Below, piece after piece: positions 20,637 through 38,769 of a DNA stretch of 64,000 nucleotides (positions are counted from its first letter, which is position 1; each line of letters starts with the position of its first letter). Both the position numbers and the translations under genes were made by a program. The stretch comes from a virus. The notes under the pieces were generated by a model. The model saw only the letters and a list, made by a program, of their open reading frames with translations. It made no database searches and was not told the origin of the DNA. Where the stretch lies: the IMG/VR virus record IMGVR_UViG_3300025133_000040, positions 47,832-111,831 of that record; one strand, written 5' to 3'.

Positions 20637-20664
20637 AGTATACACCTAAACCGCCTCAAGTCAA
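20637..20664 (-). promoter_or_regulatory. promoter TTGACT-N16-TATACT driving the left tRNA/ncRNA cluster
   Basis: repeated motif directly upstream of tRNA-Val. Confidence 0.8.
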
Positions 20665-20835: not shown

Positions 20836-21462
20836 TTAGTGATACGAAGTCCCTTTGTCGTGGTGGTCTACACTTTCAGGCTCTATGTGCCTCATGTACT
20901 CCACAATGTCATCCAGTAGCATTGGGGTGTACCTTTCAGAGTTAGGACCATGACAGTCCATGCCCACGTCCATCTGCCTGCCACAATCCCTAGTGTAGGT
21001 GCCATGACAGTGACCATATAGGTTGATAGACCCTCGACCTACCTCGTTCCACGACCCCAGAGGATAGTGACCCATGGTAATCAGCTTCTTACCGTGTCTA
21101 AACTCTCGGTATCGTCTGATGGTGGAGAAATGCTTGGTGTGCGCCTCTCCCTTGAACTTACGATTCTCTGGGTCTAGAGTGTCGTCGTGGTTACCTAGTA
21201 ACAGGTGAATCGTACGGCACTTGATTCGCGCACGCATCCCAGGAATGTCCCTCGGACCCATGGCGAAGTCGCCCAGGTGAATCAGGGTATCGCCCTCACC
21301 AACAACGCTGTTGATGTTGTCGATAATGGTGCTATCCATCTCGTCCACAGAAGCGAAGTCTCGGTAGCCCTTATCCCAGGAGGACAAAGCAGGCCCGCTG
21401 ATATTTACATGGCCGAAGTGAGTATCGGCGGTTACAAAGATTTTATTCATTCTATTCTCCAT
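20836..21462 (-). CDS. calcineurin-like metallophosphoesterase
   Basis: DTHFGH, HLGDF, GNHD, GHCH. Confidence 0.9.
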   Translation of the reverse strand: MENRMNKIFVTADTHFGHVNISGPALSSWDKGYRDFASVDEMDSTIIDNINSVVGEGDTLIHLGDFAMGPRDIPGMRARIKCRTIHLLLGNHDDTLDPENRKFKGEAHTKHFSTIRRYREFRHGKKLITMGHYPLGSWNEVGRGSINLYGHCHGTYTRDCGRQMDVGMDCHGPNSERYTPMLLDDIVEYMRHIEPESVDHHDKGTSYH

Positions 21463-22492
21463 GCTTTAAAGCATACTTGTTGCTGATGACCTTGAAAGAC
21501 AGGGGCTTTCCCAATACCTCGTTCCAGCCACCGCCATTAGCTAGGCGAACCACGATTCCTTCAGCGCGACTGCCGTTAGCGTACTTGGTTTCGTCAGCTA
21601 GTTCTAGCAGGCCCTCTAGTGTCCAAGTAGGACACTCCTCGTCTGCTGGGCCTAGGTAGCACAGGTCTACCATGGTAAGCTCATATTCCTCACAGAACTT
21701 TTTGGTCTGACGGTAGTTCAGAGTGTAGTCCTCTTCAATATCGAACACGTTGAATACCCTGAACTCAGGCTCTTTCAAGCCCTCTCGGTTGTTCTGAATA
21801 CCAGGACCAACAATCTCACCCTGTACGACGCAGTTGTCGGGCAGAGCGGCAAGTGAATACTTTAAAGCCATCCTACCGTAGACACCACCGTCAATCTTTA
21901 GCTCCATATTGCGTGAGCAAATACGAAAATGATTGTCTTCCATAATATAGGTAGCAGATGTACCGTCATGCTTAACAGAGATATAGACTTCCTTACCCTG
22001 AATCTTTTCAATGAGAGAAGGTAGGTTCTGAATCCTTTCCTCGTCTGTCTTTGAGACCAAGTGAGTAGGGAAGTGACCAATAGCATCTGCTGACTGAGGT
22101 GCGGGCTTCTCGTACTTGAGCACTTCCAGTGCCTCGGTTACGTCGTCGCCTTCTGTTACTAGAGGTCGCACAGGAACAGTCCAAGTTACTCCCTCGTCCT
22201 CAACTTCTTCTAATCTATCTAGAACAGATAACGGAAAACAAATTCCCTGTGAAACTACACCACGTAGCTTGATTGTCTTGACTCTGAACTGCTTGTTCCG
22301 AAGGAACTCAAACTCTGGTCGCTCTGGAAGGATAGAATCCAACGCCACGTAGACGCAGAGGTCACCCTCTTTGAACTCGCCCTTCTTGGCGACCACGGTC
22401 CAGCCTAGTACCTTGATTAGCTCTAGGCTATCAGCATTGTCATGTGGCAGTACAGAGGCCACCCTTTGAATTGTTGCTAGTTTGTTACTCAT
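21452..22492 (-). CDS. RNA ligase, DRB0094/Rnl5 family
   Basis: N-terminal OB (HDNADSLE, LRGVVSQG), KTDEERIQN, KHDGTS, QGEIVG, EGIV, SFKVISNKY. Confidence 0.9.
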   Translation of the reverse strand: MSNKLATIQRVASVLPHDNADSLELIKVLGWTVVAKKGEFKEGDLCVYVALDSILPERPEFEFLRNKQFRVKTIKLRGVVSQGICFPLSVLDRLEEVEDEGVTWTVPVRPLVTEGDDVTEALEVLKYEKPAPQSADAIGHFPTHLVSKTDEERIQNLPSLIEKIQGKEVYISVKHDGTSATYIMEDNHFRICSRNMELKIDGGVYGRMALKYSLAALPDNCVVQGEIVGPGIQNNREGLKEPEFRVFNVFDIEEDYTLNYRQTKKFCEEYELTMVDLCYLGPADEECPTWTLEGLLELADETKYANGSRAEGIVVRLANGGGWNEVLGKPLSFKVISNKYALKHGE

Positions 22493-22913
22493 ATTCTATT
22501 ACTACCTCAAAATGCGTCATTGTTGGAAAGTTTTCAGGTCGAATTCTCGCACCGACTCCTAGAAGTCCCGTAAGCATACTGTCACGGGGTTCTTCAATGC
22601 CATTGTAGGACTGGTGGATTTGCCTCTCACTCATAATGACTATGTCTTTATGGAAATGTTCTTTGTTGAACGCCCTGATTACTACACGCATTTAATTTCC
22701 CTCAATATACGCAAGCACTCGCTTACGTTTCTGACATATCTCACAATCGCACCAACCACTGTCACCTCTTTCAGTGTGTGGACAGGGATTAGCAACAAGC
22801 TCATAGAGGTCGTAAGCAAATTCGTTCATTCGCATCCTCTTATTGGTCGCCTCTAGCTTTTCCCTTAGTCCCTCAAAGGCTGTTCCCTCGTAAGATATGC
22901 CCATTGTACCACC

Positions 22914-23129
22914 TTATTCCTCGGAGTCAACCGTTTTTGGGTGTAAAATCTGGTCAACAAGTCTTTTTCTTGTCGGCAGGTCGATGTAGGGACTAGTAGC
23001 CGTACTCCTAGCGAGCATCTCTCGGCTAATCTTGTCGTCTCTAACCGTATTGTAGTTGTCCATGCAGCACTTCTTGAACTTCTTCTTACTGCCACACCCA
23101 CACAATGAATTTCTTCCACGTTTTTGCAT
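22914..23129 (-). CDS. SEC-C motif protein
   Basis: GRNSLCGCGSKKKFKKCC. Confidence 0.75.
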   Translation of the reverse strand: MQKRGRNSLCGCGSKKKFKKCCMDNYNTVRDDKISREMLARSTATSPYIDLPTRKRLVDQILHPKTVDSEE

Positions 23130-23136
23130 AGTCTTG

Positions 23137-23691
23137 CTACCTTTGATTGAGTTGGTTTATCTTATTTAAACTAGGGAAGCTCATAGAAGCCGGTGGCTTC
23201 TCATTTTTATACTTAGCCACGAGCACCTTACGTGCTTCAATGTCTTTCAGCGTCTCTTGGAACCTCGCCTCTGATTCCTCTTGCCACTTCTTTCTCTTAG
23301 TAATTTTCTCGGGGCTATAAATCTTACGATATATAGGAAGCTCGTCAATAGACCCGAGAGGTACATAAGCCACTACCCACCAATACATTCCATCCTCGCT
23401 CTCAAGCATCAGAGAATAGCCATCTTCATCACGGCAAAAGTTATGGAACTCATTCCACCTTGTGTAGCTTTGCACCCAGTCACACGCTAGAAGTTCCTCA
23501 ACGGTTTCAAACTCGAAAGTTTCTTTGTTGGACTCACTAACATCTACAAAATTAGGGTAGTGTTTCTTAGCCTTATGCACTGAGCACCTCCTCAATCTTA
23601 CCCCTAATGGAAGACGTAGGCTCCCACTTGCTGTGCATGTTCTTAATGGTTTCAAGAGGCACACCGTGAGAAGTGTGGCCCACACACGCAA
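23137..23691 (-). CDS. hypothetical protein (true start probably near 23580)
   Basis: N-terminal part of the predicted ORF overlaps the kinase gene. Confidence 0.55.
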   Translation of the reverse strand: MRVWATLLTVCLLKPLRTCTASGSLRLPLGVRLRRCSVHKAKKHYPNFVDVSESNKETFEFETVEELLACDWVQSYTRWNEFHNFCRDEDGYSLMLESEDGMYWWVVAYVPLGSIDELPIYRKIYSPEKITKRKKWQEESEARFQETLKDIEARKVLVAKYKNEKPPASMSFPSLNKINQLNQR

Positions 23692-24073
23692 TAGGGTCGT
23701 ACCGCCAAGAGGTATCAGGCTCTAGCACTTCTACCTCGTAGCCGTACTTCTTAGCCAGCAACACGTAGGGCTTGATTTCCTTCCAAGTGATATTGGTGTT
23801 GTCAATAATCACCGTATTCGTAGGGGGTAGCACTTCGTCTACCATATACTCCTCGGCTCGTTCTTTGTTCCAGGCATGAGCCTCACCAATCCTTCGCATG
23901 TTGAAGTCGTAGTGCCCGTCAGGACGTAGCCAGTAGCTATCAGTAGAGCAGACGCGAGACGACCAGTTCATGCTCACCCCTAGTTCGCCAGCAGTCGCAC
24001 GTCTAAACTCGTTCACAGCGGTGCTCTTACCGCTTCCAGGTAAGCCCCTGGCAATAATTAATCGCTTCTTCAT
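23573..24073 (-). CDS. P-loop polynucleotide kinase-like protein (AAA_33 / N4BP2-like)
   Basis: RGLPGSGKST, STD, IIDNTN, HGVP. Confidence 0.85.
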   Translation of the reverse strand: MKKRLIIARGLPGSGKSTAVNEFRRATAGELGVSMNWSSRVCSTDSYWLRPDGHYDFNMRRIGEAHAWNKERAEEYMVDEVLPPTNTVIIDNTNITWKEIKPYVLLAKKYGYEVEVLEPDTSWRYDPIACVGHTSHGVPLETIKNMHSKWEPTSSIRGKIEEVLSA

Positions 24074-24074
24074 T

Positions 24075-25211
24075 TTAGTTTTCCTTATCAGCCTGGGGCT
24101 TTACCATCTTCCAAATGGCCTCGGAGTAATCCTTGCCATCAATTATCATAAACACTAGGTTGCGGTACTTATAGTTGGTCATTCGCTGAGCAATAGCCTT
24201 GCGATTACCCTTATGCTTGGTCACCTCTAAGTACTTCGCCTTGGCCTCGGCCTCGATAGTGTCGTACTCAGCCTGGAAACCATTAGCCATGTCCATAACA
24301 TAAGTATAGAACTCGTCCGGTACTTTGTCAAGCCACTTATTTAAATCTTGGTTGTGCCGAAGCTGTTCCCACACTCTCTTAGGGGTTACGCCCGTCATAA
24401 TCTTGTGCAGCCTACAGTACTCGTCGAACTTAAACTTCATGCGGAAGTTCTTGAGCGTTGGGTAAACCAGGACGTAGCCCTCTTCGTTTTCAGGCTGGTC
24501 CAGAGTCTCCAACTGAGACAAGTAGTTCGCACCTTCTAAGGGCTCGATGGAATTCCAACCAGCCTTCTTAGCCTTCTCGAATAAGTCCCAGCGGTCCTGA
24601 CCGTCCCAGTTTTCAGTGACAGCAAGTAGCCGTAGCTCCTCAGTGTCGCCGTAGTCTAGAACGATGCGGTTCTCTGGGTAGATAATTTCTACCAGATATG
24701 TACATTCGGTGTCACAACCTTCAAGAATCTCGTCGTAGTCACGTAGCATCTCACGACCCTTGTACGCCTGTGGAGACGCAAAGGAACCACGAGTAGCAAT
24801 GTCCCACCGACCCTGCATTGGGCTGAAGAAGACCACGCCTAAGGAACCATCCATCTTTGGGTAAGCCTTGAAGGGCTCAGCATGGATGCGACCTAGGAAT
24901 TCCTGGTACTTCATACCGTACAGGTGCTTGGTCCGGTTACGGATAACTGGAATCTCACCCACGTTGAAGAACTTGGTGAACGGTCGAGCAACAATGTTGT
25001 TGCGGTGGTCTAAGACCAAACCACGACACATCATGGTAGCTTCGTCCCACTTGGCTTCAATCTGAGTGTTCGTTGTGTAGTTATAGATAAAGAGCGTGTC
25101 TTTTGGGTGTTCACGTACGGATACGTAGCCCTGCGATACACGCTCCTGAATCTTTTCTAGTAAGTTGTTTTCAAGTCTCATAACTTCATCCTTATAACCA
25201 GGGCTTCTCAC
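24075..25211 (-). CDS. T4 Rnl1-family RNA ligase
   Basis: CRGLV, RPFTKFFN, KMDGSLG, ATRGSF, EGYV, KFKFDEY. Confidence 0.92.
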   Translation of the reverse strand: MRSPGYKDEVMRLENNLLEKIQERVSQGYVSVREHPKDTLFIYNYTTNTQIEAKWDEATMMCRGLVLDHRNNIVARPFTKFFNVGEIPVIRNRTKHLYGMKYQEFLGRIHAEPFKAYPKMDGSLGVVFFSPMQGRWDIATRGSFASPQAYKGREMLRDYDEILEGCDTECTYLVEIIYPENRIVLDYGDTEELRLLAVTENWDGQDRWDLFEKAKKAGWNSIEPLEGANYLSQLETLDQPENEEGYVLVYPTLKNFRMKFKFDEYCRLHKIMTGVTPKRVWEQLRHNQDLNKWLDKVPDEFYTYVMDMANGFQAEYDTIEAEAKAKYLEVTKHKGNRKAIAQRMTNYKYRNLVFMIIDGKDYSEAIWKMVKPQADKEN

Positions 25212-28974: not shown

Positions 28975-29002
28975 AGTATACACTAAAGCGTGGTGGAGTC
29001 AA
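28975..29002 (-). promoter_or_regulatory. promoter TTGACT-N16-TATACT (probable leaderless transcript)
   Basis: repeated motif. Confidence 0.75.
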
Positions 29003-36072: not shown

Positions 36073-36145
36073 GAGAGGAAGGACGGAATCGAACCGTTTG
36101 ACATTGGAGTTGCAATCCAACGCCCCGCCACGAGGCATTAGTCTC
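36073..36145 (-). pseudogene. tRNA-Cys(GCA) with broken acceptor stem
   Basis: good D, anticodon (TTGCAAC) and T arms; 5' acceptor strand is the end of the upstream CDS. Confidence 0.65.
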
Positions 36146-36710
36146 CGACCTCTGATACTACCTTATCATACCCCTTAAACTTAGTTTGCAGGCCCCTTTT
36201 GGCTGCCACAACATTTTCAAGGTCGAAAAGCGTGAGTTTTCCCTTATATACACCCATATTCTGTTTTATGCAGTCTGGGAAACACATTTTCGTTTCTTTC
36301 GTCCTCTCGCAGAGAAGACCAATCATCTGAGCCCACTGGTGTTCGTTGTTTAGTCTTTTGGCCTTGTGCATTACGTAGCCACGAACATCTGCGTCATCAT
36401 CAAGTATAACGCCAACAAGGGCAGAGGTCAAGGTGGAATCGTAAAATTCTGAAAGGACTCCGTCTAGGATGTTGCTTGCCCATAAAAAATCTTTAGCCCA
36501 TAATTTATATATTGTATCACCTCTAGCAAAAAGCTCTCTACGGTATATAATGTTGCGAGTCTTATATCCAGTTCCCCATGGTTCCGGCCCCTTCTTAGTA
36601 ACTAGTCTCGCTGTTTCTTCGTAGCGGAACGTCTCGTAGCCGTGAGCGGCCAACATCATCACAATTGGAATGAACTTGTCGTCATTTGTGGTGAGGCTTG
36701 GTCTTCGCAT
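36138..36710 (-). CDS. protein-kinase-like (APH-type fold) protein
   Basis: IYKLW, GYVM, DCIKQN (DxxxxN), LFDLE. Confidence 0.55.
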   Translation of the reverse strand: MRRPSLTTNDDKFIPIVMMLAAHGYETFRYEETARLVTKKGPEPWGTGYKTRNIIYRRELFARGDTIYKLWAKDFLWASNILDGVLSEFYDSTLTSALVGVILDDDADVRGYVMHKAKRLNNEHQWAQMIGLLCERTKETKMCFPDCIKQNMGVYKGKLTLFDLENVVAAKRGLQTKFKGYDKVVSEVGD

Positions 36711-36964
36711 CTAGAAACGCCTTATATTTAGCCCGGTAGACTTGAAACGCATCGTCTTTTGATGTATGTTTAGAACATCTTAATGTAAGACGGCTGATTG
36801 CTGGTTGGCAGCAGCAAGTTCCATCCCCTAAAGTGTGTTGGCAAACGGGCTTGAATTCTTCTATTAGTTGTTTTATTGTCTTGCCTGTGTCTGTCATCTC
36901 ATTTTGTAAAAAAAATTTTTTGACGATTTGGTTTAAACGGCTACTTTTAGAGCTTCGCTCTTAA

Positions 36965-37228
36965 ATAAAAAGGCGAATCGTCTGACATTCGTCTAGGCTT
37001 TTCAGCCTTCCCCACCATTACGTGAATGTGGCAATTACTCACCACCCAAAGATGCACTAACCCGACTATCACTAGGTCGCTCACGCCCTAAGTCTGTTTA
37101 GCTTGCACGCATTGTGGTACAAGCGGCCTAAGCCTCCCACAAGGAGCGATTGTGCCCTGAACTTGTCCTCTAGGTGCTACGCACCCAGCGTCAGACTATA
37201 TAGCCAGGGTTCTGTAAATTCGTCTCAT
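36965..37228 (-). ncRNA. candidate independently transcribed structured RNA (~265 nt)
   Basis: own promoter, many hairpins, terminal hairpin plus T run, no ORF. Confidence 0.65.
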
Positions 37229-37234
37229 GTCTAA

Positions 37235-37262
37235 AGTATACACTAGAACGGGCTGGAGTCAA
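37235..37262 (-). promoter_or_regulatory. promoter TTGACT-N16-TATACT
   Basis: repeated motif. Confidence 0.8.
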
Positions 37263-37453: not shown

Positions 37454-37525
37454 TGCGACTGCTCGGTACTGCCCCGAGTTCTCTGAGTTGGAAGCCCAGC
37501 GTTCTACTATTTCTACTACAATCGC
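37454..37525 (-). tRNA. tRNA-Gly(UCC)
   Basis: loop CTTCCAA; atypical T-loop GGCAGTA. Confidence 0.8.
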
Positions 37526-37932: not shown

Positions 37933-38769
37933 AAAAGGGTCAATGAGACTATAATCACCATGAGTAATCTTTTGTTGTCGTACTCACAACGTCCGTTGGA
38001 CGATTTACGCCTCCGAAGAGAACTCCTGCCAGGGAGTCGATTAACAACGTGTCCACCTACCAAGTAGGTAATCACTCGCGACTGCAATATTTAAGAGCCT
38101 GCGTTAGCTCTATCTAAACAACTACTCAACCGCATCCATTAACTCTGCCTTGCGAGCAGTTCAACTCCGCTAGGAGTTTAGTCGCTTTCCTCGATTAACT
38201 TGATTGACCTTGCGAGTCGCCCAAGTCAGTATTACCCCGAAGGGCTACCGAATTAAGTCGCTTTCGTTGTCTAGTGTGTCAGGACTTTTGCTTTGGTTAA
38301 AAATACAGGAATCGAACCCATACAGATTGTTTGATACAACAATTGCCCTACCGTTAGGCTAATTTTCATTTGGCGAGAGACGTGCTGACACAGTTGCTCC
38401 ATATCCTTTTGGGATGCAGAATACAACACGCCTCTCTGTACAGAGTCTTGCGGACTCTTATACCGTAGTTCAAGAGAAGGTGTGCCCCCTCTCTCTCATA
38501 CTACCACATCCCACTTGTTTGCAGCTTGCAGAATGTAGTTACTGTTCCTTCCTCAGAAGTAAACTGTTAAATCCCTATCCCAGGCTATCACCTCTGGGAA
38601 GTAGTCGATAGTGTTACCCTCGTGCTACTTTCAGGCAGTCGTTCTTCCTATTGCCCATTACAGGACAACAAGGAAAGGTCAGCTTGAATGAATGGACTCT
38701 TACGAGCGACAGCTTGCCACGCTGCCTTTGGGGAGATTGCTCTCCTTACCCTAATGACTTCATACAGCC
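37933..38769 (-). ncRNA. GOLLD-like giant RNA (~840 nt)
   Basis: lies in a tRNA array; GTGTTGTATT..CAAAAGG..AGCAACTG segment, CTCGCAAG hairpins, 3' TAGTCTCA, embedded tRNA-like element. Confidence 0.75.
38294..38368 (-). ncRNA. tRNA-like element embedded in the GOLLD-like RNA
   Basis: D and T arms, encoded CCA, non-canonical anticodon loop TGTATCAA. Confidence 0.65.

Follow-up and report, generated by a model that had tools for sequence, protein, structure and literature searches.

A candidate phage-encoded, circularly permuted RNase P RNA without the specificity domain

Just past the terminator of a transfer RNA (tRNA) array in the viral record IMGVR_UViG_3300025133_000040 lies what looks like a small RNA gene of its own; what kind of RNA does it encode? 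The window analysed here is the 3′ 64 kb (64,000 nucleotides) of this 111.8-kb IMG/VR record, which is labelled G000 in comparisons, and the phage is contained in marine metagenome sequencing runs. All window genes are on the minus strand, and the window holds 30 tRNA genes, one transfer-messenger RNA (tmRNA) and one GOLLD RNA. The predicted RNA gene is ~262 nucleotides (nt) long and runs on the minus strand from about 37228 to 36967, between a copy of a promoter motif and a U-run. A preliminary description had assigned it to an unknown class and had set ribonuclease P (RNase P) aside. We found instead that, when its segments are read in rotated order, the RNA can be superimposed, helix for helix and joint for joint, on the catalytic (C) domain of bacterial type-A RNase P RNA. 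It is very probably homologous to RNase P RNA and permuted in this way, and we consider it probable that the phage gene encodes a minimal, rearranged RNase P RNA, in which the C domain is permuted, helix P1 is replaced and the specificity (S) domain is a stub.

The comparison rested on one relative. Related contigs were gathered with the split DNA polymerase as an anchor, giving 80 viral contigs; the polymerase (phrog_405) consists of open reading frames (ORFs) of 634 and 561 amino acids (aa) about 1 kb apart (L013 12900-17561, minus strand, equal to G000:C1 32900-37561). A nucleotide search of the kind proposed in the preliminary description (blastn) found no match to the RNA in 50,697 phage records, and the sole BLAST match among the 80 contigs was the closest relative, G002 (126 kb; polymerase 63% identical). 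The elements of the RNA are listed below in window coordinates, with base pairs (bp) that changed on both sides in G002 and remained paired given as both-sided changes; in the element numbering, position 1 is window 37232.

37224-37218, minus strand: 5′ strand of H1, GACGAAU, a new terminal clamp helix with its partner at 36978-36972
37215-37210, minus strand: J2/4, ACAGAA, identical to the consensus ACAGAA
37209-37202, minus strand: P4 3′ strand, CCCUGGCU (consensus CCCGGCU), partner at 37163-37155
37201-37197, minus strand: linker AUAUA, 5 nt, leading directly from the P4 3′ strand into the P2 5′ strand at the place of P1 and of the native ends
37196-37189, minus strand: P2 5′ strand, GUCUGACG, partner at 36987-36980; crosses P4 to give a pseudoknot
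37188-37170, minus strand: P3 hairpin, CUGGGUGC-GUA-GCACCUAG, of strain-variable length and longer in G002
37170-37155, minus strand: equivalent of conserved region I (CR-I), J3/4 plus P4 5′ strand, GAGGACAAGUUCAGGG (consensus GAGGAAAGUCCGG), bulged U at 37161
37154-37152 and 37108-37106, minus strand: P5, CAC/GUG (G002 CAU/AUG; one both-sided change)
37149-37145, minus strand: P6 5′ strand, UCGCU, pairing with AGCGA at 37081-37077 in the P17 loop (pseudoknot)
37141-37137 and 37117-37113, minus strand: P7-like helix, UGUGG/CCACA (G002 CGUGG/CCACG; one both-sided change)
inside the P7-like helix, minus strand: 3-bp stub, GGC-UUAG-GCC, with the P7-like helix the remnant of the S domain (37106-37154 region)
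from 37105, minus strand: J5/15, CAA, in GCAAGCUAAACAG (consensus GCAAggccAAAUAG)
37102-37099 and 37059-37056, minus strand: P15, GCUA/UAGU (G002 GCCA/UGGC; one both-sided change), internal loop AACAG
37094-37091 and 37067-37064, minus strand: P16, GACU/AGUC (G002 GACC/GGUC; one both-sided change)
37090-37073, minus strand: P17, whose loop holds the P6 3′ strand (37081-37077)
37063-37060, minus strand: GGGU, the L15/16 CCA-binding motif, CGGGUU against consensus CGGGUa
37045-37028, minus strand: hairpin Hb, GUAA loop, 2 both-sided changes
37026-37011, minus strand: hairpin Hc, GUAAUG loop, 1 both-sided change
37008-36995, minus strand: hairpin Hd, taken as P18, AGGCU-GAAA-AGCCU, 4 both-sided changes
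region 36994-36980, minus strand: J18/2, AGACGAAUG, or UAGACGAAUG if the U ahead of it, in the P18 3′ strand, is included; runs into the P2 3′ strand
36987-36980, minus strand: P2 3′ strand, UGUCAGAC, covarying with the P2 5′ strand
36978-36972, minus strand: H1 3′ strand, AUUCGCC (G002 CUUAGUC), with J18/2 36993-36987 as alternative partner in a terminator-like hairpin
36971-36967, minus strand: U5 run, the predicted RNA 3′ end

When the RNase P-type model was compared between G000 and G002, 45 of its 68 bp were unchanged, 6 had changed on one side, 16 had changed on both sides and were still paired, and 1 was a mismatch. Compensatory change was present in 11 of the 13 helix segments, while controls with partners slid by 1-3 nt gave 0-2 compensatory pairs and ~48 broken ones. 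The single-sequence fold is itself unremarkable (z = -1.8); the evidence for structure is this covariation. The helix that proves the rotated topology is P2, and it was found by blind enumeration of helices kept with both-sided changes: GUCUGACG, which follows directly on the CR-V-like segment, has as its pairing partner UGUCAGAC, which follows directly on the J18/2-like AGACGAAUG. P2 comprises 8 bp, and its G002 form, GACUAACG/UGUUAGUC, has two both-sided changes and no broken pair. P6 (UUGCU/AGCAA in G002) has one both-sided change, which is weak alone, and P3 enters the formal count with a single one-sided change. P4 showed no variation between the phages, as expected for the active site. 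Judged by eye and outside the formal count, the second P3 hairpin of a strain contig, L098, would contribute two further both-sided changes (GAAGC-GUA-GCUUC against GGUGC-GUA-GCACC).

The joints between these helices point to the same family. The RNA was mapped onto RefSeq E. coli rnpB displayed on the Rfam RF00010 consensus and structure line, and ~49 of the 54 consensus-conserved nucleotides in C-domain joints were identical (a tally by eye against the RF00010 consensus), with each conserved joint beside its expected helix; one such joint reads ACAGAACCCUGGCU against the consensus ACAGAACCCGGCU. J2/4 and the P4 3′ strand form the equivalent of CR-V (Rfam consensus ACAGAACCCGGCUUA), shifted to the 5′ end and invariant between the two phages, and the CR-I equivalent lies within a 20-nt block that is likewise invariant. 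P4 has 8 bp with the bulged U (37161) and is flanked by J3/4 (GAGGAAAG) and J2/4 (ACAGAA); the deviations here are one inserted C, one C-to-U change and one extra A-U pair, the extra A of the 5′ strand answering the extra U of the 3′ strand, which lengthens P4 by 1 bp and leaves the bulged U on the CR-I side. P2 crosses P4, and P3 sits directly between the P2 5′ strand and CR-I. J5/15 has the conserved adenosines (A248/A249), and the P15-P16 internal loop contains GGU. The pseudoknot of J5/7 with the P17 loop, P6, is a hallmark of type A, and it is present with its both-sided change. GNRA-capped P18 is followed by J18/2 (AGAnnAAUG), which reads CCUAGACGAAUG against the consensus CCuAGAugAAUG and CAGAUUAAUG in G002, and then by the P2 3′ strand. 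Furthermore, the de-permuted RNA aligned to the E. coli C domain with z = 4.9, a score reached by 0 of 300 dinucleotide shuffles, versus z = 2.2 in native order. Natural variation was found at places where RNase P tolerates it: in P3 length, in a GNRA-to-GNRA loop change and as extra sequence inserted at P16/P17 and in the S-domain stub. An early assignment of AUAGUCGGG as the P4 5′ strand was rejected, since an A-to-G change in G002 is uncompensated in that reading and compensated in P16; the segment is the P16 3′ strand with GGU.

Two features of the canonical molecule were lacking. The 5′-to-3′ order with P1 is not kept, as J2/4 and the P4 3′ strand come ahead of the P2 5′ strand; and of the S domain (P7-P14 with CR-II/CR-III), the P7-like helix of 5 bp and the stub of 3 bp are left (37141-37113). 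Between the two strands of P2 the order is canonical, and only J2/4 and the P4 3′ strand are displaced, to the front. The opening of the chain lies after the P2 3′ strand, where the 5′ part of J2/4 is variable, and the new ends are clamped by the covarying H1, which has 7 bp (GACUAAG/CUUAGUC in G002), two both-sided changes and one A.C mismatch in the window phage. Judged from the sequence, the arrangement is an exact circular permutation of the C domain, with both break-points at what appear to be tolerant sites. The 8-mer AGACGAAT that the preliminary description had reported at both ends is there in two copies, at 37225-37218 and 36994-36987 (minus strand), and in the model the 8-mer AGACGAAU occurs as J18/2 and as the H1 5′ strand. 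The copies have diverged in G002 (GGACUAAG and AGAUUAAU), and both can still pair with the 3′ strand. RNA permutation is usually explained by tandem duplication and subsequent trimming, and a repeated 8-mer at both ends fits this model because it would leave such a repeat. A group I intron (RF00028), considered for the P7-like CUGGCUA/UAGUCG and the internal ORF of G002, was rejected: P1-P6 elements are absent, nothing upstream of ACAGAA is conserved, neither a split gene nor flanking exons are present, and cmscan gave no match.

The gene itself appears to be a stand-alone transcription unit, as first proposed, and its predicted transcript ends coincide with the covarying terminal helix. Two features lie upstream.

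37374-37301, minus strand: tRNA-Gly gene, followed by a clean terminator at 37298-37279
37262-37235, minus strand: promoter, with -35 TTGACT at 37262-37257, a 16-nt spacer ending in TAGTG and -10 TATACT at 37240-37235

In a consensus scan the promoter (TTGACT-16-TATACT) matched 10 of 12 consensus positions, confirming that a consensus promoter lies just past the tRNA array terminator, and transcription is predicted to start near 37228. The motif TTGACT-N11-TAGTGTATACT has 10 copies on the gene strand of the window versus 0.19 expected, three of which precede tRNA clusters (at 20637, 40687 and 44653); the promoter at the RNA gene is thus more than a chance consensus match. Written as TTGACT-N11-(T/G)(A/G)GTGTATACT, this recurrent motif has its 10 minus-strand sites within window 6326-53155, and a near-copy with its own upstream terminator lies at 28975-29002, ahead of a protein gene. 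An ORF check of the window sequence found no substantial ORF across the RNA stretch; the 10-codon ORF described earlier at the 5′ end begins at 37227 when the sequence is read directly. All complementary pairs of the preliminary description are literally present. Comparison with G002 supported two of its five helices, CTGGGTGC/GCACCTAG, which is P3, and AGGCT-GAAA-AGCCT, which is P18; the other three, GCTTGTAC/GTGCAAGC, CTCC/GGAG and CGAC/GTCG, are unconserved and clash with covarying helices. The terminal ATTCGCCT that it had placed before the T run is at 36978-36971, ahead of T5, and both alternative pairings of the 3′ ATTCGCC are retained in G002, with both-sided changes.

The distribution of the gene is narrow. 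The G000 and G002 RNAs are 82% identical over the matched 5′ part and align in three conserved blocks with two G002 insertions, a ~75-nt hairpin at the S-domain stub and ~135 nt between P17 and the P16 3′ strand. The G002 copy has a different gene neighbourhood and lies ~2.4 kb from a 28-tRNA region, whereas the G000 RNA adjoins its tRNA array. G002 also has an open frame of 98 aa (98-103 codons; L095 1203-1496, minus strand) with GGGAGG 7 nt before the AUG. A pattern scan of metagenomes returned two near-identical copies and one chance match: L100 differs from the window copy by one letter, which turns loop GUAA into GCAA, and in L098, which the contig end truncates, two hairpins take the place of the first one. 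Contigs from marine runs carry the same two variants; these are DNA contigs and represent strain variants only, and no RNA data set was among the sequencing runs listed for the phage. The GUAA-to-GCAA variant, which retains the GNRA form, occurs in L100 and runs X9 and X11, and run X11 shares the two-hairpin P3 allele with L098. Strain contigs keep the RNA gene and diverge right after the U-run (window ~36963-36968; L100 ~6530), and other genes follow it in L100 and runs X9 and X11. The RNA 3′ end is, on this sequence pattern, a putative recombination or module boundary.

Wider searches added no member. Two covariance models, R1 for the 3′ block and R2 for the 5′ block, were run over 50 and 46 related phage records, respectively, and found only G000 and G002, and no canonical RNase P RNA was found in those records. 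Permuted forms were sought by pattern scans of viral, metagenome and genome collections; the scans of viral contigs gave 5 and 19 matches, all within protein-coding genes, and that of genome contigs gave 2 matches in one metagenome-assembled genome, without a model match. A neighbouring radical-SAM gene led to a distant phage, G001, with no RNA copy there, and the neighbouring 190-aa ORF had no relative in viral contigs and two in the protein collection. By these searches the RNA family seems rare, with two phage lineages so far.

Several observations weigh against assignment to RNase P. Rfam scans of the window region and G002, at the gathering threshold and at E <= 10, returned no family, so that no RNase P model (bacterial A or B, archaeal or type T) matches even at E <= 10, and a search of both phage records with RF00010 was likewise negative; a family scan had been proposed in the preliminary description, and it thus came out empty. 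A missing covariance-model match is expected because of the permutation and the loss of ~170 nt, but it still counts against formal membership. Family membership rests on manual mapping, there are only two independent sequences, helices with a single both-sided change are weak alone, and the enumeration also lists ~5 helices outside the model with one both-sided change. The core departs from the consensus in its J3/4 C insertion, in C70 -> U and in the longer P4; the S domain, the part that binds the tRNA T-loop, is missing; and two extra hairpins stand where type A has P18 alone. The tRNA-Gly gene appears by eye to lack an encoded CCA, yet the GGU motif is retained. Moreover, the 50 related phages without the RNA include one that has 28 tRNAs, and the 98-aa frame of G002, with its good Shine-Dalgarno sequence, crosses much of the RNA and has a weak PHROG match (E = 6e-4) to families of unknown function.

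Comparison with known systems places the RNA closest to bacterial type A (RF00010; E. coli M1 RNA). Common to both are P2-P6 and P15-P18, CR-I, J5/15 (CR-IV), the L15/16 GGU, J18/2, CR-V, the P2/P4 and P6 pseudoknots and a GNRA-capped P18. The phage RNA differs in its rotated order, which starts with J2/4 and the P4 3′ strand, in having the new terminal helix H1 and no P1, in lacking the S domain (P8-P14, CR-II/III), in its one-pair-longer P4 and J3/4 C insert, in its length (~262 nt versus ~380), in two extra hairpins near P18, and in being virus-encoded. Type-T RNase P RNA of the Thermoproteaceae (Pyrobaculum; RF02357) shares the S-domain loss, and this natural form without an S domain has been reported to be catalytically active (PMC7191817). 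Type T is archaeal, retains P1 and the usual segment order and acts together with archaeal proteins, whereas the phage RNA is permuted, phage-borne and bacterial in sequence type; assignment to type T was rejected, as only the S-domain loss is shared, the joints follow the bacterial consensus and there is no cmscan match. Circularly permuted RNase P RNAs were reportedly engineered for cross-linking in the Pace and Harris laboratories in the 1990s. In these, as in the phage RNA, the native ends are joined, new ends lie elsewhere and the fold is retained; the engineered forms are full-length laboratory constructs, whereas the phage RNA is natural, lacks the S domain and has its own clamp helix. 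A 2023 list of natural RNA permutations comprises two-piece tmRNA, permuted group II introns, hammerhead, twister, signal recognition particle RNA and ribosomal RNA, and RNase P is absent from it (PMC10085705). In each of those RNAs, as in the phage RNA, a retained three-dimensional core is encoded in rotated order. GOLLD and ROOL are likewise phage-borne structured RNAs in or beside tRNA arrays, without likeness in sequence or structure to the phage RNA, which has an identifiable ribozyme ancestry.

The surroundings are rich in tRNA-related genes. The GOLLD RNA (RF02032, 171 bits) lies at window 37943-38436 (minus strand), ~700 nt upstream of the RNase P-like gene, and ARAGORN reports a tRNA-like insert with an abnormal anticodon loop within it, at 38294-38368. 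Rfam calls a tRNA at 37454-37525 (minus strand, 38.1 bits) that is not among the ARAGORN calls. A tRNA-shaped sequence at ~36075-36155 (minus strand), below threshold in ARAGORN and Rfam, has a distinct T-arm (GACGG-TTCGATT-CCGTC) and a loop in which a GCA (Cys) anticodon may lie, and overlaps the end of the 190-aa ORF. Two RNA ligase genes, one T4 Rnl1-like (PF09511) and one of PF09414/PHA02142 type, are at 21452-25211 (minus strand). Together with the tRNA arrays, tmRNA, GOLLD and the RNase P-like RNA, the ligases suggest a broad tRNA maintenance toolkit.

How might such an RNA work? The RNA would be transcribed from the phage's standard promoter type, alongside the tRNA clusters, and the local hairpin GACGAAU...AUUCGCC with U5 would terminate transcription. 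The identical 5′ 8-mer could then capture the 3′ strand to form H1, and this would free J18/2 and the P2 3′ strand for assembly of the P2/P4 core. In contrast to the permuted RNAs of the 2023 list, the phage RNA would work as a single transcript without cleavage or circularization. The RnpA family (PF00825) was not found in the G000 or G002 phage records, and host RnpA protein would presumably be recruited, because the phage itself encodes none. It would then cut the 5′ leaders from tRNA-like RNAs and from the ~30 tRNA precursors of the phage. Without the S domain the enzyme would not read the T-loop, which could suit aberrant tRNA-like RNAs. The most likely role is, from its sequence features, that of a catalytic RNA acting with host RnpA in 5′ maturation of the phage's ~30 tRNAs, and we lean slightly towards catalytic activity in tRNA 5′ maturation. 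We regard as evenly balanced the fuller proposal of a working virus-encoded RNase P ribozyme that is permuted, S-domain-less and T-loop-independent, that captures host RnpA and that matures the tRNA arrays and tRNA-like RNAs, including the one embedded in GOLLD.

The main rival is a non-catalytic RnpA decoy: an RNase P-derived RNA that has lost cleavage and sequesters host RnpA (or pre-tRNAs), thereby altering how tRNAs are processed in the infected cell. In bacterial enzymes RnpA binds P2/P3, J18/2 and J2/4, and all of these are retained in an RNA whose core is unusual (the J3/4 insertion and the longer P4) and whose S domain is gone, in a phage with no RnpA gene. A decoy would not need its active site, however, and the active-site joints (J3/4, J5/15, GGU, J2/4 and the bulged U) are as strictly conserved as the protein-binding parts, with 20-nt invariant blocks; we consider the decoy unlikely. 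It is improbable that the RNA is an unrelated, phage-specific structured RNA resembling RNase P by chance or convergence. The absence of a covariance-model match to any RNase P family, the family of only two diverged members and neighbours that include other enigmatic phage RNAs such as GOLLD would be in keeping with such an origin, but five consensus joints stand beside the right covarying helices in the right cyclic order, with the P2/P4 and P6 pseudoknots among them, and de-permuting lifts the alignment z from 2.2 to 4.9.

Two further explanations fared worse. The RNA could be a cis-acting leader or attenuator governing read-through into the downstream ORFs (71 aa, 36682-36897; 190 aa, 36138-36710), given that the alternative 3′-strand pairings are kept in both phages and that the hairpin before U5 is weak and was not flagged by a terminator scan. 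We judge this very improbable, as the RNA is kept while the downstream genes differ in the window phage, L100 and G002, and as it is a closed unit bounded by H1 with the conservation pattern of a ribozyme core. The chance is negligible that the 98-aa frame of G002, for all its 98-103 open codons, its GGGAGG 7 nt before the AUG and its weak PHROG match, is a real gene of which the window copy is a decayed remnant, since the window, L100 and L098 copies lack such a frame, the reading frame differs across the shared blocks, the frame is mostly inside G002-specific insertions, and the substitutions are compensatory in RNA helices, not synonymous.

Having weighed these alternatives, we favour the permuted RNase P RNA. 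The preliminary description had held that a match to a known family would remove the novelty, and this applies in part: the superfamily is known, and for the architecture no natural precedent was found. Only two ribozymes are universal, RNase P RNA being one of them, and the natural order of its segments is regarded as invariable. Full-text literature searches found neither a phage-encoded RNase P RNA nor a natural permutation of RNase P RNA. E. coli rnpB had 8 matches in the phage records, among them Acinetobacter and human-faecal 'Bacteriophage sp.' contigs, and one of the matching records was inspected. MW495066.1, 'Microcystis phage MaAM05' (273,876 bp; L131/L132), was rejected as an instance of phage rnpB; it has an unannotated canonical RNase P RNA (RF00010, 251.8 bits) and carries murJ, fliM, secDF, glyS, smc and fabI, and looks like bacterial chromosome DNA. 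A Salmonella 'phage' record with an rnpB match was rejected as a bacterial scaffold by its title.

If true, the assignment would provide, relative to the literature found, the first natural circular permutation of RNase P RNA, the first bacterial-type form without a specificity domain and the first viral copy. It would offer a natural minimal catalytic core of ~240 nt for structural and mechanistic work, and it would expose a blind spot in annotation, in that rearranged ribozymes escape standard covariance models. On this reading, tRNA-rich phages may control tRNA maturation besides tRNA supply, a possibility that ties the RNase P-like RNA to tRNA-linked RNAs such as GOLLD.

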